Source: Catajapyx aquilonaris (taxonomy: Eukaryota). From it: a DNA stretch of 54,132 nt. The DNA lies in NCBI GenBank assembly GCA_000934665.2, contig JYFJ02002611.1, forward strand, positions 1-54,132. Direction: 5' to 3'. The stretch's first letter is position 1. Every line of letters begins with the position of its first letter. This document shows, piece by piece, positions 18,603 through 54,132 of the stretch. Both the position numbers and the translations under genes were made by a program. Under the pieces are notes generated by a model. It searched no databases. It was given only the letters and a program-made list of their open reading frames with translations, and had not been told where the DNA came from.

Positions 18603-18651
18603 TTTGGCACAACTTGCTTCCATTTTTGTACATATTCATTAAAAAGTCACT

Positions 18652-19652: not shown

Positions 19653-19744
19653 CAGGAATGATTGACCTTTGACCGTTCCTGACGATAGATGATACTATCG
19701 AACAGACCAAGATGGCGGTCCGCTTTGTTTGAAGCCGGTCGAAA

Positions 19745-22700: not shown

Positions 22701-22889
22701 CAAAGGTCCCGGAGACACTTTGTCCACGAGGCAACTCGTGTGGATGGACTACCTCAGGACCATTGGAGCACCCGTCGAATTGTGCCGAGTCGAAGGTGAG
22801 ACCCGCAAAATGGTACAACAACCTCTCTGTACTAACACGACTCTTTCCTTTCAGCTGTGAAGGGAAAACGGTTCAAACTGGCAACGTGA
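19745..22889 (+). CDS. FAN1: Fanconi-associated nuclease 1
   Basis: N-terminal UBZ finger (CPAC..INWHLDYDC), YYLSNF and KLYVRLYNRK motifs, SAP-like helix, C-terminal VRR-NUC (GFPDLVVW..FVEVKGPGDTLS..Q..W); multi-exon, stop TGA 22887-22889. Confidence 0.92.
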
Positions 22890-26850: not shown

Positions 26851-27514
26851 TCTCTGTCTCACTGCACCCCTCTCCTCGGCAATGTCTGGAAAGGAAGGCA
26901 ACCGGTGAGTGCACGGTGCGGTACCGCTGCGTTGCTGCATTACCTGTCCTGGTGAGGCCCCTTCCACCCCGACCCCCATCCAACCTGACCCCTGACCCTA
27001 GTGACTGACTGGACACCTCCACTGGGCTACTTTACACAAAGACACGCAGGCGTCGTCAGCGTCCCCCAAACAGCGTCGGCGCCACCCTATTTTCGATCCC
27101 TCGAACCCCCAAGGTACGCACCCAGACAGCCACACTCCACCCGCACCTAAAACCACCCTTGAAAAAACCGCTGTCCCACTTACCCTGTAAACCCGGGTTA
27201 AAAAACCAGTTTTTGGGACACCCAACAGCTACTGCCAGTAGCAGCTACTTGCAATGTAACTAATACTTAAGTGGGACACCCAGCCAGTTTGGGTTGGAAT
27301 AGCAGCTGCGTTACACGACCCTCCATTTTGTGCAAAAAAAAAAAGTTCCCCCCTCCTCTCCCCACTCCCCGTCCTCCCCTTCATAATAAGTAAGTTGGCC
27401 AATATTTTGTGCGTGCAGAATTCCTGAAGGGGGAAGGTCGCATGACGCGTAGCTGAACACTCTCGTTTCCAGGGGCTCTGCAAGTACAGTGGACACAACC
27501 ACAGGGGCAGAAGG

Positions 27515-32864: not shown

Positions 32865-34923
32865 TTATTTGATAGGAAGGACGCACTGGAAGCCAGGAAG
32901 TGGAGGCCAGTTCTGATCCTGGTCGCAGACTGAATAGGCCAGAGGAAGGCCAGTGGTGCTCTGGAAGGGTTCCCTGCACCTGTACACGGCCATGGTACCC
33001 TCCGAGTGCAGCACATCATGGCACTGCACCTCCCTTCCACTCGGGGCATGGCAACTCATCTCCATCTCTTCTATCGGAGGTGGAGGAGGGGCCTCGCATG
33101 CTATCCTGTAAGGAACTGTGGAGACAAGAACACGTTGGTAACGCCTATACTTAAATATCGACATCATTCACACACCTCCTGTTATTTCACATACGGAAAA
33201 CAGCCCAGTGTAATGTGGCAAGGTGGAAAGAGCATTAATGTATGCTGCTGGTACATATCCAGCGAAGTGTGGAGGCGCTTCATCTCGTGCTGTTGGAAAA
33301 CCATTGCCCCATTCCCTGCAACAGACATCATTAGTGTGGCCAGTGATAATGTACTGCAGTGGACAGGCGGTTTGTTACAAGATGGTCGAATCGTGACTGG
33401 TTCCATCAGTCCATTTCCACTCTCTTATTAGGTTGTCTTTAGAAAGGCCGATCCAGTATAATCTGACGTCATAATATCCCATGGCCTCTATCAGCCACTC
33501 CTGCAAGTAAATGTATGGCTATCATTAGCGACTAACAACTTGTACCATTAGTGATATAATTGTAGAATATTCCAAAGTGTGATATTCATTAATGCATCAA
33601 AATGAATAATAATAATTCTGGCAGATAATTAATTCGATTTTCTCAGCCCCTCATAGCTTGGACTTCGGACACTTCAGAATTTGGTTTTCCAATTACATTT
33701 GAGGGCTTATTTTATTACCTTCTCATCCTGTGAATTGACCGACACTAAATCCCCTCCACTTCCTATGCATCTCTCTCTGGCATCAAACCACGTTGTCCGA
33801 TAAAAAGTTTCCAGGTAGTAACAGCTTGTGGAACCTTCTCTATTCAACCAATACTCGGGGCATGGGTCATATCCCCTACCTGCAAGAGGGAATGTAGCGT
33901 ATTAGCGGAGAGCAAGGAGTAAATCATGCATGATATATAAGCTCCTCTGGGACATCACAGTCCTAATAAGCGAGCCACACTTGGGACTAATTAGCTTTCA
34001 TCTAAATTGAAACGCTGTGAATAAGTATAGAAAGTCACCTTTTACTCTTTCGCACACAAAGTTCCATATCACACGGCAATCTACATTCGCAACATTGATT
34101 ATGTGGTACGTGATTGCCACAAAACCACAATGATCAGTGTGATTTATTGCTGAAGGTTCACCGATGCCCCACTTCCTGGTATAATTGAAGTTAATTAGTG
34201 AGTATTGGGGACACAACGACCAAGACAACATGTTGTCTGTGGATACTTACAGTGATTCAGAGCTTTGAAAGTCCCTTCCATCTATCCATTTCCACTTGTA
34301 TCCTCCGACACCAGGTGATGTCTCTTCGTACACTGCTCTCAGTCCAATGTACCAGCCCACTTCATGCCCCAGGAGGGTGGGGTACATCTTTGAAGCTATC
34401 CAATCCTGGGCATAAAATTGTGTTATTACATGTAGTCATCAACTCAAGGTCGACGGGGGCCGTGGCTTGTTCCTTGTTACTATTGTGATCATTTCTGTGG
34501 AGTAAGAGACTTACCCATTCCTTATCAGAGTTCACCACCAGCAGATCACCTCCCTTGGCTCGGCACAAGTCGCGCGATTCCTGCCAAGTATGAAACTCAT
34601 CCTGGAGCAAGTAGCAAGAGGTTTCGTCTGGAGGGGATATCCAGTCTGCAGGACATTGTGCAGCCAAGGCGCCTGCGAGGAAGCTTTATCATCAATATGC
34701 TGGTTGTAAAACAAGCCCATTATTTGCAAATTACATTATAACATCTGTGAAAATTTTGTCGCCATTTGCATGGGCAACACCAAACTTTGAGATGGATAAT
34801 GTCATTGATTCTCTGCATCGATCTTAAAGAGATATCGTTGACTGAAATCCAAGTGAGGAAGACAGCAGACAAAATGAATTTGACCTTACCATAAGCCAGA
34901 AGGATGAGGGCAAAGTAGCACAT
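32865..34923 (-). CDS. Lectin A1: signal peptide + 2 CTLD + six-Cys Sushi/Wonton-like module, 8 exons, intact
   Basis: MCYFALILLAYG|ALAAQCPADWISPP..CY..TWQESRDLC..GGDLL..WYIGL..WKWIDG..GEPS..C..C..FVCE; second CTLD with YWIGL..WKWTDG; final exon ACEAPPPPP..C..C..EGTMAVYRC..C..NWPPLPGFQC. All junctions in frame. Confidence 0.85.
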
Positions 34924-35191
34924 AGTGTGCTGCCGGTAACGAGCACTAGTCAAGACTTGGTACATGTCGTGTAGTGTTATCAGGTATGCAGGATGTGTGT
35001 GGCGGGGAGAGTCTTTTCTTGTGTGGACGACTCACAGTAGAAAAACCCACCATGGAAAAGTATGATACCTTTGGGACATACATAAATTAATTTTGTATTT
35101 CCTCCCTGTGGTCACCCTATAATTACGCATCCTGCCACAGTCTACGTGTTACATGCCTGATAACAACTGCTCACAAGTTACTTGGTATGCA

Positions 35192-37106
35192 ATGGATTCA
35201 GCTGGATTGTACCATTGCATCTTGCTCGTCATCTCATCAGTTTCTGTAGAATGTAAGTCAACTTCCCTGTGTCACACGCATATATTCCTGTTGTCCTAAT
35301 ACGTATCATAACCCTCAGCGGCAAGATGTCCCCAGAGTTGGATATCCCCACCAGACGAGCCTTACTGCTACCTGCTCCAGGAACAAGAGATGACATGGCA
35401 AAAAGCACGTGAATCATGCCAAAATCAGAGAGGAGACCTTCTGGTTATCAACTCAGAGAAAGAATTGGTGAGGAGACCCCTGCTGGTACATGCTCACATC
35501 CCAATTATTATTATGTATTCAATACACCGAAGTAAGTTGGTATGGTGGTTAAGGAGCCTGACTGCTAATCGGAAGGTCCTGGGTTCAAGTCCCAGGGCCG
35601 GCAATCCTAACAGTGGTTTTCTGTTGTTTTCCACGGTCCCCCCAGGATAATTCCGGGGTTGTTTCCATATAATAGGCTACAGCCGCCTCCTTCTTTCCCT
35701 ATCCTCAGCCCCATTCAATGGTGGTACTCCACCCCCCTAATGGACCTCCGATTCTCCCAATGGGGTATAAATAAATAAATAAAACAAATAAAATTATCTA
35801 TTCAATACAGGAGTGGATAGTTTCAAAAATTAGTCGCCATAACCAAGAAATCTTAAATATTGAAACAAGGTGGTGGGTTGGGTTGAGAGCAACTGAAGAA
35901 TCCTCCACTATTGGAAGCTACCAATGGAAGTGGGTGGATGGCACTGATTATGACATGTGAGTAAGTACATATGAACCTTCTCCAACACATTTTAAATACA
36001 AACCTCTGTCATTTCAGGCCATGGGCCAGTGGTCATCCATACAAAGGAATCTACAGTGAAGACTGCGTGGTGTCTCGTAGGACAATGATCTATCACATAT
36101 TTATTGATAAAGATTGTACAAAAAGGTACAATTTTGTTTGCGAGAGAGGTACAGTGTAAATTGATTTTCCTTTACAAGATGCAGTACGATCAAATCAGTC
36201 AGGTGCAGGTGATGCATTGCAGAGAAGGAAACCACAAGCGGACTTGGATGTCCAAACTTCTGGCTTTCGAGACGTGGTTCTTCCAGCTGTTATCTGTTGG
36301 CTTCAAGACTGGAGAAGTCGTGGCAGGATGCTCACGAATTTTGCAAAGCAAATGGTGGATATTTAATATCAATCAACTCACTGGAAGAAATGGTATTGTC
36401 TCACTGCTTTCTTGTAGACTCATGGGGAAACAAAGTCTACCAAGTCTGCTCGTTTTCAGGCATGGTTGAGAGCTGTTACGATAACCCCCACAACTAAATT
36501 TAAAGTTTACTGGATTGGTCTGTCAGACATTGACCGGGATGGAATCTGGGAGTGGACGGATGGACGCACTGTTCCAACCAACTCAACATTCCTGCAAGTA
36601 TTCGCATATCAAAATTCATTTTTAATAACCAGCGGAAAAAACAATTTCCAAATGTCCATGACTGCAGAAAATGGCCCGAAGGATATCCTCGAAGGAGGCA
36701 AGGCTTGTACCACTTTGGGTTGTTGAGTTCCATTGATGGGAGTGGTCTGAGGAGCGAATCGGAACACTCATATTTTTCATCAGTGTGTGAGCAACGTGGA
36801 AGTAAGTTGTTGGTTTACTATTTATCAGTTGAAAAAAAGATGTACTCCTTCAATGAAATTGCTTTTTTGTCAGTTGAGTACGTGGTGAGCTGTGAGGCTC
36901 CTCCTTTGTCTGAGAACCAAGAGGTGAGATGCTACAAACCAAGTGGGACAGAAGTGCAATGCCGTGACGTGCTGCATGTGGAGGGCACCATGGCCATGTA
37001 CCAGTGCAAGCCTCCTTACCAGAGCACCACTGGCTTCCCGCATGCTTACTCCATGTGCGAGCCCAATCAGAACTGGCCTGCTATTCCAGGATTCCAGTGC
37101 CGATGA
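35192..37106 (+). CDS. Lectin B1: signal peptide + 2 CTLD + six-Cys module, 8 exons, intact
   Basis: MDSAGLYHCILLVISSVS..CPQSWISPPDEPYCY..WWVGL..WKWVDG..DCV..DKDC..FVCE; CTLD2 YWIGLSD..WEWTDG; last exon SCEAPPLSENQEVRC..FQCR*. Needs a GC donor at intron 6. Confidence 0.85.
35530..35783 (+). mobile_element. tRNA(Ser)-like SINE (family 1) with (TAAA)n tail, in B1 intron 2
   Basis: TGG..TGGTTAAGG A-box region, GACTGCTAATC anticodon-arm-like sequence, B-box GGTTCAAGTCC; body shared with 1112-1516. Confidence 0.8.
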
Positions 37107-37347
37107 CTCCTGACACCTGGATAGGAATCTACATGAAATGACAGGGAATTCTACTCACTCTGTCAACATTATCAGCATTATATTTTATTCCTACACTAAT
37201 TACATTATAAGTAGAGTACAATTCAATAAATGATGGTGGTTATTTCTTGGCTGTTTACCTGGATATCAATTTTGTCATTTTACTTGTACATGACCTGTTG
37301 AGTATTTACATATAGGCGATGATTGTACAAAATGTCCTCAACCAGGA

Positions 37348-39385
37348 TTATTCGATATGAAGGACACACTGGAAGGCAGGTAGTGGAGGCCAGTTCTGAT
37401 CCTGGTCGCAGACTGAATAGGCCATAGGAAGGCCAGTGGTGCTCTGGAAGGGTTCCCTGCACCTGTACACGGCCATGGTACCCTCCGAGTGCCGCACATC
37501 GTGGCACTGAACCTCCCTTCCACTCGGGGCATGGCAACTCATCTCCATCTCTTCCATCGGAGGTGGAGGGGCCTCACAAGCTATCCTGTAAGGGACTGAA
37601 ACAAGTGCACGTTGGTGATGCCTTTCTTTGTAAAGCTGTACATCAACCACACACCTCCTGTTATTTCACACACAGAATACTGCCCGGCACTATGTGGGAA
37701 GGTGATAAGACCACTAAACTGTGATGCATACAATGCAAAGTGTAAAGGAGCTTCTTCTCGTACCTTCGGGTAACCTTCATACCATTCACTGCAACATATA
37801 AATGATTAATGTGGCCAATCACACATAAATAAGTGCAGGGGAGGGCCACATTATTACAAGATTCTTGGATCATGACTAGTTCCATCAGTCCACTCCCACT
37901 CTTTGGTCAGGTTGTTCTTGGAGAGGCCAACCCAATAAATGAAAATCCTGTAATATTCCATTGCCTCTCTCAGCCACTCCTGCAAGTAAATGTGTGAACT
38001 TTGTTATCGAGTCCTTGGAAGTCTAATTATATTACCTTTTCTTCCTGTGAATTGACCGACACTAAATCTCCTCCGCTGGCTTTGCATTCATCCCTAGCTT
38101 CAAACCACGTTGTCTTTAAGGTATTGATGTAGTAACAGCTTGTGAAACCTTCTCTATCCAGCCAATACTCAGGACACACGTCGTGTCCTCCTTCTGCAAA
38201 TTATCAGGTGTTGGATAATGAAATCCCCCATATAGAGCATGGTACTAATAAGCAAGACATTCAGAGCACAAAATAATAACCCCTAATCTAAATTAGATGG
38301 GTAATGAATAAGTTTTTTGATATGTATTGTTTATTTAGCTTTACCCCATTAGAGGGAAGAGAACCCTTTTAGGGGGGTGGAATACCGCCATTTTTATTAC
38401 GAAATTTCTTCGCATTTTTTTCTCTCCGGTGCAGGGGTCAGGATAGGGATTTGTAAGGATGAGATACGGGTGGAAGTGTGCAGCATCAAGTGCGATGTCC
38501 ACCAAACTGCTTCAGTGGGTATAAATAAGTTTAAAGAGTCACCTTTTTCTTTTTCGCATGCAGAGACCCACGTGAGAATACCATCAAAATTGAAAGCCCA
38601 AGTTAAGTTGCCACTATTTATCGCCAAACCACAATCGTCGTTACTTGGTGAGTAAATTTCATCTGAAGGTTCGCCATTAGCCCATTTCCTGAAATAATTA
38701 TTAACGACACCCCTTATTGGGAATACAGCTTTAGGTTGTCTGTGGATACATACAGAGATGGAGAGCTTTGAAATTCCCTCCCGTCTATCCATTTCCAGGT
38801 GAATCCTCCAACACCAGGTGATGTCTCTTCGTACACTGCTCTCAGTCCAATGAACCAGGCCACTTGACGTCGGTAGTAGGAGGGATACAACTTTGAAGCT
38901 ATCCAATCCTGCTCAGTGGATTCTGTTAGTACGTCCATTGTTGCGAGCATTTTTGTATAGTAAGAGATTGTTACCCATTCCTTATCAGAGTTCACCACCA
39001 GCAGATCACCGCCCTTCTCTTGGCACAAGTCGCGAGAATCCTGCCAAGTATGGAACTCATTCTGGAGCAAGTAGCAAGAGGTTTCGTCTGGAGGGGATAT
39101 CCAGTCTGCAGGACATCGTGCAGCCAAGGCACCTGCAAGCAATTCTGCTGGTGAACGGACTGGTTGTAAAACTTTCCGTCTAAAACATCAGTGATAATAA
39201 CATTCTCTTTATAGGCGTGGACAACACTGAACTTTCACATTGATAATTGAGATGTCGTTAATTATTCTCTATTTGCATCTTAGGAGATAACTATCATTGA
39301 CTGATATCCAAGTGACGATCACAGCAGACAAAATGAATTAGACCTTACCATGCACCAGAAGGATGAGTGCAAAGGAGTAGTACAT
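37348..39385 (-). CDS. Lectin A2, intact reading frame
   Basis: Eight exons homologous to A1 splice in frame; GEPSD motif; one inner CTLD1 Cys replaced by Gly; ends FQCVLHIE*. Confidence 0.82.
38330..38480 (-). mobile_element. 3' fragment of SINE family 1
   Basis: Reverse complement of ~1370-1516 (e.g. CGAAATTTCTTCGCATTTTTTCTCTCCGGTGCAGGGGTCAGGATAGG). Confidence 0.75.
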
Positions 39386-39565
39386 ATATGGTCTTTCTGG
39401 TAACGAGCATGAGCCAAGACTGTGGTTGAATGCTGTCATTTGTTATCAGGTATGCAGGATGTGCGCGGCAGGAAATATCCTACTGTGTGGACGACTCGCA
39501 GTGGAAAAGTGATTTTTAAGTAGGCTGCAGCCTACGTGTTACCGGTCTGATACCCTCTCACAAGA

Positions 39566-41239
39566 ATGGATTCATCTGAATTGTACCATTGCATTTTGCT
39601 CGTCATTTTCTCAATATCTGCAGACAGTAAGTTGTTTGAAATAAGTGTTGTCTTTCAATGGCTGTTGACCTCCCCCACACTTTGCCATTCACATTGGTGA
39701 TTGATAAATTGCCTATTAACCTAGTGCATCACAACTCTCAGCTGCAAGATGTCCCCAGAGTTGGATATCTCCTCCGGATGAGCCTTACTGCTACCTGCTG
39801 GAGGAGCGAGAACTGACATGGCAAGAAGCACGTGAATCGTGCCAAATGCAAGGAGGAGATCTTCTGGTTGTCGACTCGGAGAAAGAATTGGTGAAGGGAC
39901 GCTCCTGTGTTGTTTCTCCTGCATACATGCTCACATGATAATCATCTCCTAAATTCAGGAATGGATATCTACAGCAATCAGTCGCAATGTCCGACGAATT
40001 TGGTATGTCACAAGGTGGTGGGTTGGGTTGAGAGCCACTGAAGAATCCTCCAACAACGGAAGCTACCAATGGAAATGGGTGGATGGCACTGATTATGACA
40101 TGTACTCATCACTGATGTACGGAAGTAGTGAATCTTCCCCAATACTTTTAAACACAAACCTGCGTCATTTCAGACCATGGGCCAGTGGTCATCCACGTAA
40201 AGACTCCTACAGCAAGGACTGCGTGGCATCTGGTAGCACGATAATCTCCGAGTTTTTCCTTCAAGATTGTACAGAAAGGTACCATTTTGTTTGTGAGAGA
40301 GGTACAGTGTAACTTGATTTTCCTTTGCAAAATGGCAGTGAGGTCAAATAAATCAGGTTCATATAATGCATTGCAGAGAAAGAAACCAGAAGTAGACGTG
40401 GATGTCCAAACTTCTGGATTTCGAGACGCGGTTCTTCCAGCTGCTACCTAGTGGCTAGGAGAATGTACATATCGTGGCATGATGCTCACGAATTTTGCAA
40501 GGAAAAGGGCGGATATTTAATATCAATCAACACACTGGAAGAAGTGGTATTGTCTCAGAGCTCACTTCATATTATTGTAAGCGAAACAAGAAGGGACCAA
40601 GTCTGCTTCTTTCCAGGCATGGTTGAAACGTGAAAGACCTATCGAAACCAACAGCAATATGTATTATTGGATTGGTCTGTCAGACATTGACCGGGATGGA
40701 ATATGGGAGTGGACAGATGGACGCACTGTTCCAACTAACTCCATATCACTGCAAGTAAAACAAAACCCAATATTAATAAACAGTAAAACACAATTTGCAA
40801 ATCTCTCCGACTGTAGAAAATGGCCTGAACGATTTCGTGCCAATAGGCATAACTTTGCGTACTGGACATATGGTGAAGATGAAAGTGATCTGAGGAGCGG
40901 ACCAGAACACTTATCTCATGGATCGGTGTGTGAAAGACGTGGAAGTAAGTTGCTGGTTAACTTTCTCTAAAAACCAGGCCTTTAATAATTCCACTTTCTT
41001 TGTCAGTTGAGTACGTGGTCACCTGTGAGGCTCCTCCATTGTCCGAGAACCAAGAAGTGAGATGCTACAAACCGAGTGGGACAGAAGTGCAATGCAGTGA
41101 TGTGCTGCACGTGGAGGGTACCCTGGCCATGTACCAGTGCAAGCCTCCTTACCAGAGCACCACTGGCTTCCCGCATGCTTACTCCATCTGTGAGCCCAAT
41201 CAGAACTGGCCTGCTATTCCAGGATTCCAGTGCCGATGA
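39566..41239 (+). CDS. Lectin B2, intact
   Basis: MDSSELYHCILLVIFSISAD..; eight exons homologous to B1, all in frame; ends FQCR*. Confidence 0.83.
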
Positions 41240-41399
41240 CTCCTGAAACCTGGATAGGAATCTACATGAAATGACAGGTAATTCTACTCACTCTGTCAAC
41301 AATATTTATTCATACACTGTACAGTACACGTAGAGTACAATGCAATAAATGCTAGTTTTTTTCTTGGCTCTTTTCCTGGAGGTTTTTCGTTTTACTTTT

Positions 41400-41740
41400 A
41401 CATGACACGAGGATTTTGCAAAATAATAATAACAGCTACTGTGTATTTATCTATTCAGGAAAAACACTATGAATGTGGTTGGAACCGTTTTCCTCCTCGA
41501 GAAGTCCCGAAATAAATTTTTCATAAACAGATTGTTGTAAAAGCTTCGGCCAACAGTTAGGCAATCGCCTAGATTTTCGTCTACTCGTACTCTGATGATA
41601 AAGAGAAGATATTTTACAAATAATAATAACCGATATCCTTACAGGCTCATGCTCTTCACTACTGTAGGAATGTGGTGAGAATAATAAATTTTCCTCGTAA
41701 AATTATTTTACAAATATATTGCTGTAAAAACGCAACATTC
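41400..41740. repeat. AT-rich dispersed repeat with internal inverted segments
   Basis: Shares TTTTGCAAA.AATAA..ACAGCTA..ATCTATTCAGG..AAACACTA.GAAT and GCCTAGATTTTCG..TACTCTGA.GATAA with 46190-46570; lies at the 5' breakpoint of the B3 fragment. Confidence 0.55.
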
Positions 41741-41763
41741 CAGCAGTATCTGCTCGTTTCCAG

Positions 41764-42400
41764 GCATGGCTGAAAGGTGTTATTACGATAACCCCCACAA
41801 CTAAAGTTTACTAGATTGGTCTGTCGGACATTGACCGGGATGGAACCTGGGAATAGACAGATGGACGCACTGTTCCAACCAACTCAACATTCCTGCAAGT
41901 ATTCGCATATCAAAATTCATTTTTAATAACCAGTGGAAATTTGCAAATGTCCATGACTGCAGAAAATGGCCCGAAGGATATCCTCGAAGGAGGCAAGGCT
42001 TGTACCACTTTGGGTTGTTGAGTTCCATTGATGGGAGTGGTCTGAAGAGCGAATCGGAACACTCATATTTTGCATCAGTGTGTGAGCAACGTGGAAGTAA
42101 GTTGTTGGTTTACTATTTATCAGTTGAAAAAAACATGTACTCCTTCAATGAAATTGCTTTTTTGTCAGTTGAGTACGTGGCGAGCTGTGAGGCTCCTCCT
42201 TTGTCGGAGAACCAAGAGGTGAGATGCTACAAACCAAGTGGGAGAGAAGTGCTATGCCGTGACGTGCTGCACATGGAGGGCACCATGGCCATGTACCAGT
42301 GCAAGCCTCCTTCCCTGGCACCACTGGCTTCCCTTATGCTTACTCCATGTGCGAGCCCAATCAGAACTGGCCTGCTATTCCAGGATTCCAGTGCCGATGA
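41764..42400 (+). pseudogene. Lectin B3: 3' fragment (exons 6-8) copied from B1
   Basis: Nearly identical to 36460-37106 including introns; TGG>TAG at 41812 and 41854, 1-bp frameshift near 42312; no upstream exons. Confidence 0.88.
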
Positions 42401-42646
42401 CTGCTAAAACCTGGATAGGAATCTACATGAAATGACAGGGAATTCTACTCACTCTGTCAACATTATCAGCATTATTTATTCCTACACTACATTATGAGGA
42501 GAATAGGATACAATTCAATAAATGATGGTTGTTATTTCTTGGCTGTTTACCTGGATATCAATTTTGCCATTTTACTTGTACATGACCTGATGTTGATTAT
42601 TATTTTACATATAGGCGATGATTGTACAAAATGTCCTCAACCAGGC

Positions 42647-44826
42647 TTATTCGATATGAAGGACACACTGGAAGGCAGGTAGTGGAGGCCAGTTCTGATC
42701 CTGGTCGCAGACTGAATAGGCCAGAGGAATGCCAGTGGTGCTCTGGAAGGGTTCCCTGCACCTGTACACGGCCATGGTACCCTCCGAGTGCAGCACATCA
42801 TGGCACTGCACCTCCCTTCCACTCGGGGCATGGCAACTTATCTCCATCTCTTCCAAAGGAGGAGGAGGAGGGGCCTCACAGGCTATCCTGTAAGGAACTG
42901 TGGAGACAAGTGCACGTTGGTGATGACTTCATTGTAAACCACTACATCATCAACACACCTCCGGGTATTTCACACTCAGAATACTGTGCGGCGTAATGTG
43001 GAGAGGTGAAAAGAGCATGAATGGTTGGTGCGTACGTCGCAAAGTGTAAATCAGCTACTTCTCGTACATCCGGGAAACCTTTGTCCCATTCACTGCAACA
43101 GAAATCATTAGTGTTGCCAATAATCGTGTGCCATGATGAACTGGCAGTTTGTTACAAGATGCTCGAGTGGTGACTGGTTCCATCAGTCCATTTCCACTCT
43201 TCTCTTGGGTGGTTTTTGAAGAGGCCGATCCAAAAAACTGCAATGTCGTAATATCCCATGGCCTCTATCAGCCATTCCTGAAAGTGAATGTATGGCCATT
43301 GCCAGCAAGTGCAGTCTTTTCTTGGAAGTCTTGATTTAACATTGATTACCTTCTCTTCGTTTGAATTGACCGACACCAAAATAATCCCCTCCACTTGCTT
43401 TGCATTTCTCTCTGGCTTCAATCCACGTTGTCGTGAAGGTGTTCACGTAGTAACAGCTTGTGGAACCTTCTCTCTCCAGCCAGTAATACTCAGGACATTC
43501 GTCTTGTCCTCCATCTGCAAAACAAAATGTTCTAGTATAGGAGGAGATGCCTAATAATTATAATCTCCTAAAGGATAGTCCTTATGTCCTAATAGGCGAG
43601 GCATACATGGGCACAAATTACTCCTAATCTAAATTAATATGGTGTGAATTGTATTTTAAAATGTCACCTTTTCCTTTTTCGCATACAGAGGACCAATGAG
43701 GCAGAAGGCATTAATAATTGATAGTCCCAGTGAAGTTGCTATTAAATATTCCCAATAATGCCAAACCACAGAAATCGTCGTTAATTGGTGGGTAAATTTC
43801 GTCTGAAGGTTCGCCATTAGCCCACTTCATGTTAATCAGTGTTGGGTAGGCTACTGCATGGGACAAAAGATGCCGATAAAATGAATCACCTTGTTCACTA
43901 TACTGACTATAGTATTTCATGGTACCGGACTTTGAATTTTTGTTTCTAACTTGTCAAATAATACCTTTTTTCATATTTACCTGTAAAAACCGTGTTAAAA
44001 GTTTTCGAAGTTTGTGAATACATACAGTGAGTCAGAGCTTTGAAAATCCCTTCCGTCTATCCGTTTCCAGGTGTATCCTCCAACACCAGGTGATGTCTCT
44101 TCGTACATTGCTCTCAGTCCAATGTGGCAGTCCACTTGAAGTCCGTAGTAAGAGGGATACAACTTTGAAGATATCCAATCCTGCTCAGTGGGTTGTGTTA
44201 TTACACTATTGTGATCATGTGAAGTAAGAGACTGTTACCCATTCCTTATCCGAGTTCACCACCAGCAGATCACCTCCCTTGGCTCGGCACAAGTCGCGAG
44301 ATTCCTGCCAAGTATAGTCGTCATCCTGGAGCAAGTAGCAAGAGGTTTCGTCTGGAGGAGATATCCAGTCTGCAGGACATCGTGCAGTCAAGGCGCCTAC
44401 AAACAATACATATTTTTATTGTGGTCATGAACATAATATATGGTACTGGTTGTACACTCTTAGCCATTTACCTTCTCTAGAGAAGGTAAAAAAGAGGCCC
44501 TTTTTACCCTCTATTTTATAAGGTAATACATGCAAAAGTTACCTTCTAATCAAGTTACCCTTTAATAATTTACCCTCTAATGTAAAGTAAAAAATGCTTT
44601 CACTGATACCGGTTTTAACAGTATACTGTTAATCATCAGTGAAAGCATTTTCTTCGGACACGTGGACGTGGACAACACCGAACTTTCACGGGTGGCTGTC
44701 ATTGATTCTCGATCATTATATGGAGTTTACAGAGATATTGCTGACTGATGTCCAAATGATAATGACAGCAGACAAAGTGAGTTTGATCTTACCATGCGCC
44801 AGAAGGATGAGTGTAAAGTAGTACAT
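42647..44826 (-). pseudogene. Lectin A3, full length but disrupted
   Basis: Exon-4 acceptor AG lost (~43829), in-frame TAA at 43713-43711, 4-bp insertion in exon 5 (~43380); no head-to-head B partner. Confidence 0.8.
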
Positions 44827-45143
44827 AGGATGCTGCTGGTAACGAGCATTACCCACGACTGATTGTATGTCATCGTGCATTGTTATCTGATATACAGGAT
44901 GTGTGGCAGGAAATAGCTTACTCTGTGGACGACTCACAGTGGAAAAGTGTGATTTTTAAGTAAGCCGCAGCAACCTGGAAAGGAATAGACCCAAATCATA
45001 GCAACATTTTATTCCAACGTATAGTACACTGCAATAAATCCTAGTTGTTTCTTTGCTATTTTCCTGGATTTCAAGTTTTTATTTTTATTTAGAGGATACG
45101 AGGACTGTTTACTCTCGTGACAGTACAAATTATGTTGACGAGG

Positions 45144-47866
45144 TTATTCGATTGGAAGGACGCACTGGAAGCCAGGAAGTGGAGCCCAGTTCTGATTCTT
45201 GTCACAGACTGAATAGGCCAGAGGAATGCCAGTGGTGCTCTGGAAGGGTTCCCTGCACCTGTACACGGCCATGGTACCCTCCGAGTGCAGCACATCATGG
45301 CACTGCACCTCCCTTCCACTCGGGGCATGGCAACTCATCTCCTTCTCTTCCATCGGATGTGGAGGAGGGGCCTCGCATGCTATCCTGTAAGGAACTGTGG
45401 AGACAAGTGGACATTATGACGTATAATTAAATCTGTACATGATCAACACACCTCCTGTTATTTCACACACGGAAGGTAGTCTTGCGAAATGTGGCACTGT
45501 AATAAATACATGATGGGCTGGTATATATACACCAAAGTGTGCATGCCCTTCGAATGATTTTGGATAATTGTTCCCTTCTATCACCAAATCTTGAGCCCAT
45601 TCCCTGCAACAGATATGATTAATGTGGACAATCAGATATGAACTTCTGCAACAGAGGGGCAGATTGTTACAAGATGCTTGAGTCATGACTGGTTCCATCA
45701 GTCCATTCCCACTCTTTGGGTAGGTTGTTCTTGGAGAGGCCGATCCAATATTCGTTAGTGCTGTAATATCTCATTTCCTCTCTCAGCCACTCCTGAAGCG
45801 GAAAGTGTGGCTATTGTTAGCAAGGGCGAATATAATAAACTGTAGCCTACCATCAGTAATTGAAACGCTCGACCATAACATTGGAATTGGGTTCCTCCAA
45901 TTGACTTCGAGGGGCTTTAATTAAGCTTACCTTCTCTTCATGTGAATTGACCGACACCAAATCCCCTCCACTAGCTTTGCATCTCTCTCTGGCTTTAAAC
46001 CAAGTTGTCTGATGAGTGGTCTCCATGTAATAACAACTAGTGGAGCCTTCTCTGTTCAACCAATTCCCAGGACATGAGTCATGTCGTATCTCTGAAAAAT
46101 AGAAAATAATGTGCTTCTGATGAGCAACAGGACGATGCTTAACCCCTTCGCTCCCAGCTAGGCCTACAGATTTTGCCTTACGCGTGCTTTGAAGATATGG
46201 ACAAGATATTTTGCAAATAATAACAGCTATATTCATCTATTCAGGGTAAACACTACGAATACGCTTGGAACAATTTTCCTCAGCCTAGAAGTCCCTAAAT
46301 TAATTTCTAAAAAGAACGCCGCAAAGTACGTATATATATACAGTATATAGGTAGGCCACCAGCGCAGCGCCTAGATTTTCGCTTGCACTTACTCTGAAGA
46401 TAAGGACAAGATATTGTTATTCCGTATGTAGGCTATTTGATAATGAAATCAGCCTAACAGTTGGCTGGTAGTCTGAAATTTGGAGTTTTTACAGCGATAT
46501 TTTTGAAAATTAATTTAGGAACTTCTAGACAAGGAAGACTATTCTAACCACATTCCTATAGTGAAGAGCAAGAACGTGATTTATGTTCACTTGAGTGTGA
46601 ATGCCATTGAAATAGTTTAGGACATCGTATTCCTACTAAACAAGACGTTAATGGCACAAATGACAGCTAATCTAAATTACAATGTTACTAATACGTAAAT
46701 GGAAAAGTCACCTTTTCCTTTTTCACATACAGACGAGTAACCGACAGCACATATTGTATTTACAGCCACGATGTTGGCGCGATAAACCATCGCAAAACCA
46801 CAGTAAGAGGTGACATACATTCCTGAAGGTTGACCAACACCCCACTTCCTGGAACAATTCAAGTTAATTAGGGAGTGCTGGGTATACTGCATGGGACAAA
46901 AGGTGCATACCATTGCGGTATCTATTTTGTCTTTCATAGCACTTGTTGTATACGATACAGTACGCTATAAGGTGAAGTGGGGTAAGTGCATGCACGGGGT
47001 AAGTGCATACACGGGGCCGCCATATTGGAATGAAAATGGCTGACGACACCAACACGGGGGGGATGTTATGTGCAGCTACACAAAAGAGTGCCTGACGCGT
47101 TTTGGTGTCGTCAGCCATTTTCATTCCAATATGGCGGCCCCGTGTATGCACTTACCCCGTGTATGCACTTACCCCACTTCACCTTACATCGATTCCTAAA
47201 TCTTCAGAGATTTAGGAATCGATTTGTATTACGAGCAGGATCTGTCAGAATGATTCTATCATGTGTAGGAAGCATGGTGCACGATCTGATTTGGTGGCAC
47301 ACAATTGCAACCACCCAACAGCAAAAACAACGACACTGTCTTGTACGTCTTGTATGAACCCATAAGTTGTCTGTGGATACATACAGTGATGGAGAGCTTT
47401 CAAAGTCTCTTCCGTCTATCCATTTCCACTTGTATCCTCCGACACGTGGTGATGTCTCCTCGTACACTGCTCTCAGTCCAACGAACCAGCTCATTTCAAA
47501 CCCCAGGAGGGTGGGGTACAACTTTGAAACTATCCAATCCTGCTCAATGGAATTTGTTAGTACTTCCATTGCTGTGAGCATTTTTGTGGAATATGAAACC
47601 TACCCATTCCGAATCAGAGTTCACCACCAGCAGATCACCTCCCTTCTCTCGGCACAATTCGCGAGATTCCTGCCAAGTTTTGAAGTCGTCCTGGAGCAAG
47701 TAGCAAGAGGTTTCGTCTGGAGGAGACATCCAGTCTGCAGGACATTGGACAGCCAAGGCACCTGCAGGAAAGGTAGTTGAACATACTGATTAAAAATTTT
47801 CATATTGGCATAAGTATTTCCTTTGACCTTACCATGAGCCAGAAAGATGAGTGCAAAGTAGTACAT
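45144..47866 (-). CDS. Lectin A4, intact
   Basis: MYYFALIFLAHG..; eight exons in frame; GQPS motif in CTLD1; ends FQCVLPIE*. Confidence 0.82.
46190..46570. repeat. Second copy of the 41400-41740 repeat, in A4 intron 4
   Basis: Direct sequence similarity as described for 41400-41740. Confidence 0.55.
46970..47184. mobile_element. TA-flanked foldback MITE in A4 intron 3
   Basis: ~83-bp near-perfect TIRs AGGTGAAGTGGGGTAAGTGCAT... with an internal ~19-bp direct repeat; TA on both sides. Confidence 0.82.
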
Positions 47867-48073
47867 AGGGTGCTGCTGTTAATGTGCATTAGCCGGGACT
47901 TGTTGGTTGACGAGCAGTGATGCTATGAGACATTCAGGATGTGTGTGGTGGGGAATATTGTCTTTTCCTGATGTGGTCTCCCTATCGCTGTACAATATAC
48001 ATCCGGGCGCAGCATACGTGTCAGTGTGTCACTTACTCATATGTAGATTGCTCACAAGTAACTTTGGTATGCA

Positions 48074-49782
48074 ATGGATTCAAGTGGATTGCTCTGTTGC
48101 ATTTTCCTCTTCCTAACCTCTATTTCTGCAGACAGTAAGTTATGTAAAGTAATGATCATCTTTCAGTCTTTGAGGATGTTGACCATCTTGGCTGTTCGTC
48201 AGTCACTTTCTTTGAACAAATATTTATCGTGCCTGATGTCCTAAAATCACAACCTTCAGCTACTAAATGTCCCCATAATTGGATCTCTCCTCCGGACGAG
48301 CCTTACTGCTATCTGCTTCAGGATGAAGCACTGACATGGCATGAGGCACGTGAATCATGCCAAAATCATAAAGCAGACCTTCTGGTTATCAACTCGGAGA
48401 AAGAATTGGTGAGGAGACCCTGTGGTGTTCAGTATGCTTGTATCCTACATGATCATATACTAAACATGTCTTAAATTCAGGAGTGGATATCTTCAAAAAT
48501 TATTCGTACAATCGCTGGTATTGAGGTTGTAGGAAGGTGGTGGATTGGATTGAGAGCAATTGCGAAATCTTCCAACGACGGAACCTACCAGTTGAAGTGG
48601 GTGGATGGCAATGATTATAACACGGACTCATCACTGCTGTACGCAAGTACACGTGAACTTTCTGTAAAAATTTCTGCAACCCTATTCTATTCCAGAACCT
48701 GGGACATTGACCATCTAAACACAATAATCTACAGCGAAGACTGCGTGTTATCTCATAGAGGAAAATACCACAGGCTTATTGACCACGGTTGTACGGAATT
48801 GTTCCCATTTATATGCGAGAAAGGTACTGTAGAGTTGCAGTTAATTATTTCTCTTGGAAAACTGCGGTGAATTCAAATTATTCAGTCTAGGTATAATGTG
48901 TTCCAGAGAATTTCAGCGGAACCAATAGGAGTTGTCCAGACTTTTGGCGTCCTAGACGCGGTTCTTCAAGCTGCTACTTGTTGTCTTCGATATATTATCG
49001 CCAGTCATGGTACATGGCGAATGCAACTTGCAACGCAGTGGACGCATACTTAATTTCCATCAATTCACCTGCAGAAATGGTATTGTTTGACTGGCAATTT
49101 GGATTAGGCGAAACTATGTGCACCAAGTCTGCTCTCGTTTACAGAAATGGGTGAAAGATATTACGAAATCCGGCATAAGAGATAACTTTTACTGGATTGG
49201 TCTGTCAGACATTGACCGGGATGGAGTCTGGGAGTGGACAGATGGACGCACTGTTCCAACTAACTCCATATCACTGCAAGTACAATCCATTACTAATGAA
49301 CAGTATGAATAATCTGTCAATACAAAATTCCTCTACTGTAGAAAATGGTCTGAAGGCCATCCTCAAAGAAGGCGAGGGTATATTACAGCTTTGCGTTCTT
49401 GACCAGATTTAATGGAGCTGGACTGACTGTGACAGTCGCACCAAAATACATGTCGTATTCATCGGTGTGTAAAAGGCGTGGAAGTAAGTTGTTGGTTTAC
49501 GTTCTCTAAGCCCCAGGACTTCAATAAATTACTCCACTTTATTTGTCAGTTGAGTACGTGATCACCTGTAAGGCTCCTCCGTTGTCTGAGAACCAAGAAG
49601 TAAGATGCTACAAACCGGGTGGGACAGAAGTGCAATGCAGTGATGTACTGCACGTGGAGGGCACAATGGCCATGTACCAGTGCAAGCCTCCTTACCAGAG
49701 CACCACTGGCTTCCCTTATGCATACTCCATGTGTGAGCCCAATCAGAAATGGCCTGCAATTCCAGGCTTCCAGTGTCGATGA
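48074..49782 (+). pseudogene. Lectin B4, single 2-bp frameshift in exon 7
   Basis: All eight exons present; GGG-TA-TAT-TAC at ~49377-49386 (B5: GGG TAT TAC) shifts frame to TGA at 49400-49402, removing the end of CTLD2 and the C-terminal module. Confidence 0.72.
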
Positions 49783-50274
49783 CTGCTGCAACCTGGATAG
49801 AAATCTACCTGATATGACAGGGAATCGTAATACGTATACTCACTCTGTCAGCAGCAGTATTAATTCTTTAAAAATGTACAGTGTAGGTAGGATAAAATGT
49901 AAAAAATGCTGCTTGTTGCCTATTTTCTTGTATTTCGAGTTCTTCGTTTTACAGGCACGACAACTTTGGTATTCTATGGATTCATCTAAATTTTATGCTT
50001 ACACCATTGTGATAGCAATCAGAAATGGCCTGCTATTCCAGGCTTCCAATGCCGACCACTACTTCAAACTGGAAAGAATTCGACTCGAAATGACAGAAAT
50101 ATTCTATCCCCCTATATTAGAAATATTTATTGTATTAATGTGTGAGTGCTACAACTAGATTGCAATAAATTATTCAGGTTCGGTTTTGGCTACTTTCCTG
50201 GATTTATATTTTGTTATTTCCGCTTTTACGTGACATGAGTAGTGGTGAAATCTACGCTGGCAACAGTACAAAAA

Positions 50275-52036
50275 TTATGTCCCCAGATGGGAATATTCGA
50301 TTGGAAGGACACACTGGAAGGCAGGGATTGGAGGCCAGTTCTGATCCTGGTCGCAGACTGAATAGGCCAGAGGAAGGCCAGTGGTGCTCTGATATGGTTC
50401 CCTGCACCTGTACACGGCCGTGGTACCCTCCGAGTGCCGCACATCGTGGCACTGCACCTCCCTTCCACTCGGGGCATGGCAACTCATCTCCATCTCTTCC
50501 ATCGGAGGAGGAGGAGGGGCCTCACAGGCTATCCTGTAAGGAACTGGAGACAAGTGCACGTTGGTGAAGACTTCATTGTAAACCACTACATCATCAACAC
50601 ACCTCTTGCTATTTCACACACGGAATACCCTCCAGCGAAATGTGGTAAGGTGGTAAGAGCATGAATCGTTGATACGTACAGCGCAAAGCGTAAAAGAGCG
50701 TCTTCGTGTACAGTCGGGACACCTCCGTGCCAGGCTCTGTAACGGAAATCATTAGTGTAGCCAATAACCGTGTATTGTGATGAACTGGCAGTTTGTTACA
50801 ATATGCTCGAGTCGTGACTGGTTCCATCAGTCCATTTCCACTCTTCTGTTGTGTTGTTTGGGAAGAGGCCGATCCAAAAAATTGAAGTGCTGTAAAAATA
50901 TGCCACAGCCTCTATTAGCCACTCCTGAAAGTGAATGTATGGCCATTGCTAGCGAGTGCAGAATGTGATCAACAGTAACATTAGTAACAGGAGTGTATAA
51001 AATGCCACAGTGTCTTGTCAGAGCTTTGAAAATCCCTGCCGTCTATCCATTTCCAGGTGTATCCTCCAACACCAGGTGATGTCTCTTCGTACACTGCTCT
51101 CAGTCCTATGAACCAGCCCACTTCACTACCCAGGAGGGTGGGGTACAACTTTGAAGCTATCCAATCCTGCTCAGTGGATTGAGTTATTATTATTCTGTAC
51201 TATTGTAATCATTTCTGTGAAGTAAGAGACTGTTACCCATTCCTTATTAGAGTTCACCACCAGCAGATCACCGCCATTCTCTTGGCCACGAGTCGCGAGA
51301 TCCCTGCCAAGTATAGAACTCTACCTGGAGCAAGTAGCAAGAGGTTTCGACTGGAGGGGATATCCAGTCTGTAGGACATCGTGCAGCCAAGGCACCTACA
51401 AACAATATATTGTGCTCATGAACATACGGCACTGCCGTACTGGTAGTAAAACTTTCTGTGCAAAACAACAGTGAACGCATTTTCTTCATACACGTGAACA
51501 ACACTGAACTTTCACAGGTAGATGTCATTGATTCTCTGTCATTATACAGACAGGGAGCATATACTACATAAGAGGCGCAAACATTCGATTTCCGCGTCTC
51601 TCTGTTTGGGTCGTTGCCAAGGCTGGCGGCCATTTTGAAGTGTGGGTAACGCCAACGAGGTATAAATAGGGTACAGGCAAAAATAGGGTCTGCCATCTTT
51701 GATTCGCGCGTGTTCTTGCCTTTCTTGCCATATAGTTGCCATGTCCGTCACAATAATCAAAGATGGCGGACTCTATTTTTGCCTGTACCCTATTTATACT
51801 TCGTTGGCGTTACCCACACTTCAAAATGGCCGCTATCCTTGGCAACGGCTCCAAACAGAGAGACGCGGCCAAAGGCGCCAAAGGCGCCGACAGAAGTTTG
51901 CGCCTCTTATGTAGTATATGCTCCCTGATATAGATCTTAAAGAGATATTGTTGACTGATGTCCAAATGAGGATGACAGCAGACAAAGTGAGTTTGATCTT
52001 ACCATGCGCCAGAAGGATGAGTGTAAAGTAGTACAT
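50275..52036 (-). pseudogene. Lectin A5, internally deleted
   Basis: Exons 4-5 missing (breakpoint ~51015); 1-bp insertion in exon 2 gives RDSWPREWR* (stop 51270-51268); MITE in intron 1. Confidence 0.83.
51551..51927. mobile_element. Foldback MITE with CAG...CTG ends (P/hAT-like) in A5 intron 1
   Basis: 32-bp perfect TIR CAGGGAGCATATACTACATAAGAGGCGCAAAC plus long internal inverted arms; flanks ATACAGA / ATATAGA; absent from the paralogous intron at ~44715. Confidence 0.85.
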
Positions 52037-52229
52037 AGGATGCTTCTAGTAACGAGCATTAGCCCAGAATGATTGCATGTCATCGTGTATTGTTATCTGA
52101 TATGCAGGATGTGTGGCAAGAAATCGCGTACTGTGTGGACCACTAACAGTGGAAAAGTTATTTTTAAGGAAGCCACAGCCTACGTGTTACTGGTCTCATA
52201 ATCTCTCGCAAATGTAACTTGAGTTTACC

Positions 52230-53950
52230 ATGGCTTCATCTGGATTGTACCACTGCATTTTGCTCATCATTTTCTCAATTTCTTCAGACAGTAAGTTGTG
52301 TAAAATAACTTGTCTTTCAATTACTTGTTGAGTTCCGCACACCTCTCCTTTCACACTTATTCATATGACATGATGCCTGCTGTACTAATCTTGCAATCGT
52401 CAGCTGCAAGATGTCCCCAGAATTGGATATCTCCTCCGAACGAGCCTTACTGCTATCAGTTCGAGGAACGAAGACTAACATGGCAGGAAGCACGTGAATC
52501 GTGCCAAATGCAAGGAGGAGATCTTCTGGTTGTCAACTCGGAGAAAGAATTGGTAAGGGAGATCACCTGTGGTGTTTCTCCTGCATGTAGACTACTGTAT
52601 ATGCTCACATACTAATCATCTTCTAAACGCAGGAGTGGATATCTACAACAATCAGTCGCAATGTCCAACGAATAATAAGGTATTCAACATGGTGGTGGGT
52701 TGGGCTAAGAGCAACTTGGAGAGCAAGCGAAGAATCCTCCACCTATGGCTACTTCCAATGGAAATGGGTGGATGGCACTGATTATAACACCTACTCATCA
52801 CTGCAAGTACACTACAAGTGAACCTTCAGCAACACCTTTTAAAAATCCAAACCTATATTATTCCAGACCATGGCTCAGTGGTTATCCACGCAGAGGAATC
52901 TACAGCGAAGACTGCGTGGTGTCTCGTAGCACATCAATCATCCTACTTATTGATCAAGATTGTGAGAGGATGTTTAATTTTGTTTGCGAGACAAGTACAG
53001 AGTAACTTCATTTGTTTTACAAAACTAGGGTGAGATCAAATAAATCAGGTGCAGGTAATGTATTTCAGAGAAAGAAACCACAAGCAGACGTGGATGTCCA
53101 AACTTCTGGATTTCGAGACATGGTTCTTCAAGCTGCTACTGGTTTGATTCGCTGACGAGTAGGTCATAGTATGGAGCTAACGAATTTTGCAAGGAAAATG
53201 GCGGATATTTAATATCAATCGATTCACCTGCAGAGAAGGTATTTTCCCACTGCTCATAGAATGTAGGCGAAACTAGGTGTACGAAATCTGCTTGTTTCCA
53301 GGCATGGTTGGAAGATGTTACGAAATCCCCAACAGGGAGAAACTACTGGATTGGTCTGTCAGACTTTGACAGGGATGGAATCTGGTACTGGGCCGATGGT
53401 CGCATTGTTCCAACTAACTCTACATTCCTGCAAGTAACTTAATTATAATTATAGCAATCCATCTGAACATGAATAATTTTTATTTTCTAATCTCCCTGAC
53501 TGTATAGAATATGGCCTGAAAAATATCCTCGCAGAAAGCAAGGGTATTACAACTTTGCATGCTGGAACTACATTGATGATTATGATGATGATGAAACTGG
53601 TCTGATTAGCGAATCGGCATACGTAACTCATGGATCGATCTGTGAAACGCGTGGAGGTAAGTTGTTGATTTGCTTTCTGTAAAACTCGGGCCTTTAATAA
53701 TTCCTATTTTTGGTCAGTTGAGTACGTGGTGACCTGTAAGGCTCCTCCGTTGTCTGAGAACCAAGAGGTGAGATGCTACAAACCGAGTGGGACAGAAGTG
53801 CAATGCAATGACGTGCTGCACGTGGAGGGCACCATAGCCATGTACCAGTGCAAGCCTCCCTACCAGAGCACCACTGGCTTCCCTTATGCTTACTCCATCT
53901 GTGAGCCCAATCAGAACTGGCCTGGAATTCCAGGTTTCCAGTGCCGATGA
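52230..53950 (+). pseudogene. Lectin B5, complete except for one TAG at a conserved Trp codon
   Basis: All eight exons and splice sites are intact and in frame; TCA TAG at 53164-53169 where B1, B2 and B4 read SW. Confidence 0.65.
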
Positions 53951-54132
53951 CTGCTTCAACCTGGAAATAAATCGACCCGAAATGACAGAAACGTGCTATG
54001 TCCCCCACATTAGAAATATTTATTGTTACAATGTATGAGTGCTACAACTAGAATGCTATAAATTCTGGTTCTGTTTTGGCTACTTTCCTGGATTTATATT
54101 TTGTTATTTCCCCTTTTACATGACATGAGGAG

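Follow-up and report, generated by a model that had tools for sequence, protein, structure and literature searches.

In the chorion locus of Bombyx mori, HcA and HcB genes are arranged as head-to-head pairs around a common promoter region of 330 nt, and 21 such Hc pairs follow one another in tandem (PMC4639761). In Caenorhabditis elegans, 18 clec gene pairs share putative bidirectional promoters, two of these pairs act together in pathogen recognition, and the pairs have been proposed to constitute heterodimeric pathogen receptors (bioRxiv 10.1101/2024.09.05.611528). We describe a comparable locus in Catajapyx aquilonaris (assembly GCA_000934665.2, contig JYFJ02002611.1), where two paralogous gene subfamilies occupy positions 32865-53950 of a stretch of 54,132 nucleotides, hereafter the window. 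There are ten copies in all; those of A lie on the minus strand and those of B on the plus strand, and they encode proteins with two C-type lectin-like domains (CTLDs) and one Sushi or complement control protein (CCP) module. We consider it likely, though well short of certain, that this locus is a lineage-specific birth-and-death array of secreted CTLD-CTLD-Sushi proteins that arose from an inverted two-gene unit.

The layout is a known kind of gene-family expansion, not a new system. The sequence-only reading that preceded this analysis had not recognised it as described, a view that does not stand, since chorion A/B pairs (PMC4639761) and C. elegans clec pairs (bioRxiv 10.1101/2024.09.05.611528) share it. 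As in the chorion locus, two paralogous families form tandem head-to-head pairs, unpaired copies and pseudogenes are interspersed, and gene conversion has been invoked; however, the chorion genes encode unrelated structural proteins of the eggshell from 2 exons, and their co-expression has been demonstrated, whereas the A/B lectin-like pairs are known from sequence alone (PMC4639761). With the clec genes of C. elegans, the array has in common neighbouring CTLD pairs, a shared putative promoter, several interrelated pairs and some pseudogenes. The functional nematode pairs are transmembrane proteins whose role was shown genetically, whereas A and B, with two CTLDs, a Sushi module and no membrane anchor, are known from their genes and likened to them by the CTLD fold only (bioRxiv 10.1101/2024.09.05.611528). 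NKRP1 and CLEC2 from the natural killer gene complex of mammals are likewise tightly linked CTLD paralogues, 3-7 kb apart, which bind each other, but they are tail-to-tail, single-CTLD type II membrane proteins without Sushi and without regular cassette amplification (PMC3819593). The alpha and beta globins of teleosts, finally, are old paralogues of one complex, commonly head-to-head or tail-to-tail and in several linked pairs, although they have another fold and their partnership is proven (PMC2975663). No description of a head-to-head CTLD-CTLD-CCP array was found in open-access papers and preprints.

Self-BLAST of the window showed that repeated units, 70-87% identical and in both orientations, make up 32865-54132. 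Proteins from different subfamilies are 38-44% identical, and those inside each subfamily 59-75%. Base-by-base reading together with an exon search bore out an earlier claim that two subfamilies with the same 8-exon plan stand in four head-to-head pairs, and the ATG-to-ATG distances then given (268, 180, 207 and 193 bp) match the mapped start codons exactly:

Pair 1: A start codon at 34923, B start codon at 35192, gap of 268 bp.
Pair 2: A start codon at 39385, B start codon at 39566, gap of 180 bp.
Pair 4: A start codon at 47866, B start codon at 48074, gap of 207 bp.
Pair 5: A start codon at 52036, B start codon at 52230, gap of 193 bp.

The traits of the chorion-type layout, namely two paralogue families, head-to-head orientation, a spacer shorter than about 350 bp and pairs in tandem, are all found here. 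Neighbouring pairs had also been said to join tail to tail, which is the case for B1-A2, with 241 bp between the stop codons, and for B4-A5, with 492 bp; pairs 2 and 4, however, are not adjacent, with the B3 fragment and the unpaired A3 lying between them. The junction features, none of which has a strand, are the following:

37107..37347: tail-to-tail junction B1-A2, 241 bp, with the AATAAA signals of both genes inside.
41240..41748: remnant of the junction downstream of B2 (to about 41413), then a repeat element also present in A4 intron 4; breakpoint before B3.
53951..54132: first part of another tail junction, with 88% identity to the B4-A5 junction.

Since this last feature, the final 182 bases of the window, matches the B4-A5 junction, the array probably runs on beyond the window end. 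An AATAAA signal is kept behind every copy, 16-382 nt past the stop codon and, given that those of both genes are placed inside the 241-bp B1-A2 junction, the convergent 3' ends should overlap there.

The exons of A1 and B1 were fixed from the base-by-base reading, and those of the other copies by phase-aware exon search, DNA mapping and inspection. Both A1 and B1 have 8 exons, 1158 coding bases and 385 residues, with intron phases 1,0,2,1,0,2,1. Exon 1 encodes the signal peptide, exons 2-4 CTLD1, exons 5-7 CTLD2, and exon 8 the Sushi/CCP module, directly followed by the stop codon. The copies are, in order:

32865..34923, minus strand: A1, intact, 385 amino acids, with AG/GT splice sites and no internal stop.
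34890-34923, 34515-34672, 34251-34405, 34039-34175, minus strand: A1 exons 1-4.
33719-33879, 33379-33500, 33176-33315, 32865-33115, minus strand: A1 exons 5-8.
35192..37106, plus strand: B1, intact 8-exon gene, 385 amino acids.
35192-35252, 35319-35467, 35811-35956, 36018-36148, plus strand: B1 exons 1-4.
36223-36392, 36460-36593 (GC donor), 36668-36801, 36874-37106, plus strand: B1 exons 5-8.
37348..39385, minus strand: A2, open 8-exon frame, 384 amino acids, one conserved CTLD1 cysteine changed to glycine.
39566..41239, plus strand: B2, intact 8-exon gene, 381 amino acids.
41749..42407, plus strand: B3, fragment with exons 6-8 only (41764-42407), a pseudogene by its lesions, nearest to B1.
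42647..44826, minus strand: A3, unpaired, a pseudogene by its lesions, with only 145 bp of spacer homology upstream (44827-44971).
45144..47866, minus strand: A4, open 8-exon frame, 389 amino acids, with introns 3 (536 bp) and 4 (620 bp) enlarged by repeats.
48074..49782, plus strand: B4, the most diverged B copy, of doubtful status.
50275..52036, minus strand: A5, a pseudogene by its lesions.
52230..53950, plus strand: B5, all 8 exons, probable pseudogene.

A1 and B1 use AG at every acceptor and GT at every donor save that of B intron 6, where GCAAGT is the sole donor that keeps the frame. This donor is present in five of five B copies on the plus strand (36594-36599, 40751-40756, 41895-41900, 49276-49281 and 53430-53435), with GT at the homologous A donors, and B intron 6 would be a conserved GC-AG intron, its splicing being predicted. 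The donor of B5 intron 3 (52803-52808) is likewise GCAAGT. In A2 exon 4 (38543-38688), the glycine stands at the third conserved CTLD1 cysteine of A1 and A4; the mature A2 protein has 15 cysteines, an odd number, and may possibly carry a free thiol.

Several introns and junctions hold repeats. A dispersed repeat in B1 intron 2 (35560-35704), which thereby reaches 343 bp, is 86% identical to 1109-1254 of the window; it resembles a short interspersed nuclear element in look, and ARAGORN found no tRNA in it. An element with internal inverted repeats (46254-46325 versus 46558-46488) is present at 46168-46573, in A4 intron 4, and at 41413-41748, where it sits exactly at the breakpoint before the truncated B3. 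At 51564-51928, in the enlarged A5 intron 1, the open reading frames (ORFs) of both strands have mirror-image translations, which suggests a long inverted repeat inside this intron.

The CTLD assignment follows from Lectin_C and fold matches, WIGL/WVGL motifs, and the cysteines C0, C0', C1 and C4 in the alignment. Pfam Lectin_C matched four of the 13 exon ORFs, in one case above the curated cut-off, and eight of 13 had no match at all. Matches at E <= 1e-3 to an A2 ORF extending across intron 2 were 55 distinct CTLD chains in PDB (best DEC-205, 9.3e-8) and 472 proteins of a library that comprises 1.84 billion protein representatives; all four of these proteins that were scanned with Pfam carry Lectin_C, and the ESM Atlas neighbours of this ORF belong 100% to Lectin_C clusters (score 0.92). 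By phmmer, the B2 exon 3-4 read-through ORF had no match in PDB. The closest sequence matches are mannose-receptor-like multi-CTLD proteins, plus the CTLDs of DEC-205 and Endo180. Identity to the A2 query is 27-47% among the best 150 of the 472 library hits, none of which (0/150) was matched by the Sushi profile of the A/B copies, and A1 and B1 are 22-33% identical to library proteins over the CTLDs, among the matches listed. A word-index search for longer proteins, with the B1 exon 7-8 ORF and the Sushi alignment, came back empty, as it did for a FAN1-like control exon, so that the blanks for the lectin genes say nothing on novelty.

The last module has the four framework cysteines and the invariant tryptophan of a Sushi/CCP domain, together with matches to the CCP fold; two extra cysteines bring the invariant ones of this exon to six. 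Pfam Sushi scored A1 at 20.3 bits, just below the cut-off of 20.7, and did not hit B1, while a profile from nine open Sushi exons matches CCP modules of factor H (E 1.9e-5). An AlphaFold2 model of the module has a mean pLDDT (predicted local distance difference test) of 75.4, and its top structural matches all contain CCP modules (PAPP-A, beta-2-glycoprotein I, CD55, CD46 and C1r; TMq up to 0.62); Foldseek gave no match to the model at E <= 0.001. Between A and B the Sushi exon is 59-62% identical, far above the remainder of the proteins (e.g. 32868-33113).

Strict sugar-binding C-type lectins are marked by an EPN or QPD tripeptide and by the WND motif of Ca2+ site 2. None of these is present in the A/B alignment, in either CTLD. 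At the EPN/QPD site, CTLD1 has EPS or QPS in A and HPY, HPR, YPR or HLN in B, and CTLD2 has FPT, YPK or similar in A and YPR, FRA or similar in B; CTLD2 also lacks the C2-C3 cysteine pair. The term lectin used in the first reading is thus apt for the fold and doubtful in its strict sense, and "lectin-like" is safer, since with the Ca2+/sugar motifs missing the ligands need not be glycans. As the sole strongly hydrophobic stretch is N-terminal and the protein terminates right after the Sushi module, the products of A and B are probably secreted. An unpaired cysteine common to a whole subfamily was found in neither A nor B.

In vertebrate genes that combine both modules, three exons make up the CTLD and a single one the CCP. 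The G3 region of lecticans and the selectins also have a CTLD directly before Sushi/CCP. The A/B models of 381-389 amino acids are neither, consisting of a signal peptide, two CTLDs and one Sushi only, and they differ from lecticans, selectins and the mannose receptor family by lacking EGF, link, fibronectin II and transmembrane parts.

Nonsynonymous (dN) and synonymous (dS) divergence, and their ratio omega, were estimated by the Nei-Gojobori method. Within subfamilies, whole genes have a dS of 0.30-0.56, a dN of 0.16-0.28 and an omega of 0.39-0.63. Between A and B, the dS of the whole coding sequence is saturated at 1.56-2.64, which places the A/B split much earlier than the amplification. 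The Sushi exon has a dN of 0.02-0.05 and an omega of 0.10-0.27 in seven of the eight within-subfamily pairs (A1-A4, 0.04/0.04), and exons 4 and 7, the third of each CTLD, have a dN of 0.23-0.72 and an omega of 0.43-1.38; nucleotide identity is 0.89-0.96 in exon 8 and 0.62-0.84 in exons 4 and 7. By these estimates strong purifying selection acts on the Sushi exon, and the third CTLD exons are the fastest-diverging. The third CTLD exon presumably encodes the long-loop ligand-binding region, and the pattern, from small samples, would fit a constant module coupled to binding regions that diversify.

Half of the copies (A1, A2, A4, B1 and B2) keep an open 8-exon frame; the decay of the others had gone unnoticed in the first reading. 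In A3, exon 4 is interrupted by an in-frame stop, and exon 5 is longer by an insertion of 4 nt. A5 has gained 1 nt in exon 2, has lost exons 4-5 and its usual stop codon, and reads past the latter. B3, truncated at its 5' end, has lost 1 nt in exon 8, and two tryptophan codons of its exon 6 have become stops. Judging from these lesions, all three are pseudogenes. B5 is a probable one: its codon 203 (53167-53169), tryptophan in the remaining B copies, is a premature TAG. Exon 7 is 134 nt long in B1, but its homologue in B4 has 142 nt and is thereby put out of frame; use of an alternative acceptor (49356) would restore the frame at the cost of the KWxEG motif. Both sides are intact in two of the four pairs (1 and 2); decay follows the pairs only loosely.

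The spacers between the paired start codons are presumed to hold the promoters of both genes:

34924..35191, no strand: spacer 1, 268 bp, between A1 and B1, presumed shared promoter region.
39386..39565, no strand: spacer 2, 180 bp.
47867..48073, no strand: spacer 4, 207 bp.
52037..52229, no strand: spacer 5, 193 bp.

All four are mutually homologous at 68-80% pairwise identity, from which it follows that the pairing goes back to duplication rather than to chance. Their GC content is 0.42-0.47, with 6-7 CpG; a 317-bp stretch upstream of A3 has a GC content of 0.39 and 9 CpG. Neither the four spacers nor these 317 bp contain a TATA-like motif. In the chorion locus, by contrast, the promoter is more than 90% conserved between TATA boxes, compared with 68-80% and no such motif in the spacers described here (PMC4639761). 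Two blocks recur: block 1, TATGCAGGATGTG, found upstream of A3 as well as in all four spacers, at a distance of 62-66 bp from the A start codon, and block 2, GCAGCCTACGTGTTAC, which all four spacers have 24-50 bp ahead of the B start codon. In spacer 1 they are placed at about 34985-34997 and 35137-35152, respectively. Common descent accounts for both, which are candidate promoter elements only. With 180-268 bp between start codons, both promoters should overlap, barring unseen upstream non-coding exons. The shared promoter region proposed earlier is thus borne by this geometry, not by any extra constraint on the spacer sequence.

Measured from one A stop codon to the following one, unit 1 has a period of 4483 bp and unit 4 one of 5131 bp. 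Identities among copies are 0.64-0.96 in the tail junctions, 0.68-0.80 in the spacers and 0.62-0.94 in the introns and, as the junctions are conserved as well as the spacers and introns are, the array would be a two-gene tandem repeat without a preferred register. The pair plus its spacer had been put forward as the unit of duplication. However, the register cannot be fixed, and the most similar tract crosses a tail junction: it runs from B exon 6 via the junction to A exon 8 in the copies B1-A2 and B3-A3, which are 93-99% identical there (B exons 0.93, 0.99 and 0.96; junction 0.96; A exon 8 0.96). Beyond it, identity falls to 0.75-0.76 in A exons 7 and 6. By its sequence, this tract is a young duplication or conversion that spans a tail junction and includes no spacer. 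B3 starts in intron 5, right behind the repeat element shared with A4 intron 4, and upstream of A3 145 bp of spacer are followed by sequence from downstream of A4. Either a partial copy of a segment or deletions that each removed about one gene would account for this structure.

Maximum-likelihood trees of whole genes are ((A1,A4),(A2,(A3,A5))) for A and (B4,((B1,B3),(B2,B5))) for B. When only the four pairs are considered, the best tree of both subfamilies groups pairs 1 and 4 apart from pairs 2 and 5 (written here as 14/25), an agreement expected by chance once in three. For A, this split has a support of 86/90 and the alternative 12/45 is rejected (approximately unbiased test, p-AU 0.012); for B, with a support of only 55/45, neither alternative is rejected (p-AU 0.35 and 0.29). 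In a test for mosaicism, the informative sites favouring each split were counted along the alignment of the four units:

Spacer: 2 sites for 12/45, 14 for 14/25, 2 for 15/24.
B exons 1-2: 3 sites for 12/45, 11 for 14/25, 0 for 15/24.
B intron 4 to exon 6: 17 sites for 12/45, 5 for 14/25, 12 for 15/24.
A exons 7-5: 8 sites for 12/45, 10 for 14/25, 16 for 15/24.
A total: 12 sites for 12/45, 26 for 14/25, 25 for 15/24.
B total: 40 sites for 12/45, 38 for 14/25, 29 for 15/24.

By these counts, the copies are mosaics that have exchanged patches, and such an exchange leaves tree congruence unable to decide whether A and B were duplicated jointly. The congruence check suggested with the first reading therefore gives a divided answer: the best quartets agree, but B does not single out one topology and the signal is mosaic.

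The birth-and-death array that we favour would have started with an old inverted duplication, giving rise to the paralogues A and B, head-to-head and about 200 bp apart, both secreted and both consisting of a signal peptide, a long-form CTLD, a second CTLD and one Sushi/CCP module. Unequal crossing-over would then have multiplied this two-gene segment into a tandem array whose period is about 4.5-5.1 kb. Later on, the copies would have exchanged patches by gene conversion or recombination, gained repeats and suffered deletions, with about half of them turned into pseudogenes. The short spacer would carry the core promoters of both genes, and the members of a pair would probably be switched on together. 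Their products may be soluble recognition proteins, with a diversifying binding surface and a constant Sushi module for docking or assembly. Innate-immune recognition would be the most likely function, to which we give about an even chance. Several points weigh against this reading. The immune role is drawn by analogy with other expanded CTLD families only, and transcription of the intact copies is itself a prediction. Omega exceeds 1 in a few small exon comparisons only, so that positive selection is a hypothesis, and the high dS of exons 4 and 7 could reflect escape from homogenisation. Spacer conservation beyond the intron level was not found (0.68-0.80 versus 0.62-0.94), which means that the spacers give no sequence sign of extra constraint. 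The frameshifts could in principle be assembly errors, although A3, A5 and B3 each have several independent lesions, including substitutions to stops, which speaks against such an origin.

A different explanation, in line with the partnership suggested in the first reading, is that neither A nor B works without the other, the two forming a secreted heterodimer or a receptor/ligand-like couple, made in equal amounts from one bidirectional promoter, and that the cassette has been kept because each A needs its own B, or any B if specificity is combinatorial. We consider this unlikely, even though it has a precedent in C. elegans, where CLEC-27/35 and CLEC-26/36 share a promoter, require both members and co-precipitate (bioRxiv 10.1101/2024.09.05.611528). 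All four pairs retain the head-to-head geometry and homologous spacers, but tandem position alone explains the kept geometry. Both partnerless copies (A3 and B3) are dead by their lesions, and status is concordant in three of the four pairs (1 and 2 intact, 5 broken, with pair 4 discordant or doubtful); this concordance is not significant, however, and an intact A4 stands next to a frameshifted B4. The shared 14/25 quartet likewise counts for the partnership, but such agreement has a one-in-three chance, several topologies are left to B and the signal is mosaic. Moreover, the youngest copied tract spans a tail junction and no spacer, and neither subfamily has the common unpaired cysteine that a disulphide-linked dimer would call for. 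A complex prediction with the Sushi exons of A1 and B1 alone (score 0.01, mark 0.34) weighs neither way. A more specific form of partnership, in which each pair would encode a secreted A+B heteromer, Sushi or CTLD faces would join the chains, the third CTLD exons would form a joint binding site, and cassette amplification with patchy conversion would generate a combinatorial A x B repertoire, appears to us somewhat less probable still.

More improbable than either partnership is a decaying relic, in which the intact-looking copies are also unused and the whole array is the neutral aftermath of an old segmental amplification. Disabling lesions in four to five of the ten copies, the invasion of introns and junctions by repeats, the loss of one conserved disulphide cysteine in A2 and the fairly high overall omega within subfamilies (0.39-0.63) would all fit this, but five copies have kept eight open exons and intact splice sites despite a dS of 0.3-0.56, the omega of 0.10-0.27 in the Sushi exon speaks for continuing purifying selection, and the polyadenylation signals are retained throughout. 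That haplotypes or reads were stacked into false tandem copies is very improbable: tandem arrays are generally hard to assemble, and no specific point for an artefact was found, whereas the copies differ by 13-30% in nucleotides, and also in intron lengths and repeat insertions, far beyond allelic difference, and the single N of the window lies at 4687, with none in the array region.

The window is animal genomic DNA with a GC content of 0.36-0.55. Upstream of the array lie, in order, P450 genes and then, within 17700-31500, a FAN1-like gene, an ankyrin exon, a G-beta-like exon and immunoglobulin-domain exons:

1-17600, plus strand: tandem cytochrome P450 copies, with Pfam p450 on the exon ORFs 6154-6771, 9256-9900, 2782-3084 and 12875-13171.
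5348-7587: P450 segment repeated at 8432-10534 with 78-85% identity.
3514-3572 and 6935-7033: short stretches in which a 21-22 nt unit (GGAACCGGGTGGAAC...) is repeated in tandem, at matching sites in two P450 copies.
14148-15084: tandem repeat of about 94 nt, about 10 copies, 72% matches; a related stretch lies 3 kb on, at 17020-17600.
18861-19217, minus strand: ankyrin-repeat exon.
19733-20800 and 22429-22860, plus strand: FAN1_HTH and VRR_NUC, respectively, of the FAN1-like gene.
24717-25031, minus strand: G-protein-beta-like WD40 exon.
29010-29450 and 30443-30880, plus strand: immunoglobulin-domain exons, directly upstream of the array.

Arrays of this kind need care in annotation, given the GC-AG intron and the fact that half of the copies are pseudogenes or likely so. 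Among the best 150 of the 472 hits, the CTLD-CTLD-Sushi architecture had no relative with more than 47% identity to the query, and the locus shows how an inverted two-gene unit may amplify, swap patches and decay. It also offers built-in comparisons between intact pairs, a discordant pair and orphan copies. If the heteromer were true, it would be a soluble two-CTLD counterpart, in another animal lineage, of the paired CLEC receptors of C. elegans, and if the intact pairs turned out to be co-expressed and their products to associate, the array would represent a compact, paired and diversifying CTLD recognition system outside nematodes and vertebrates.

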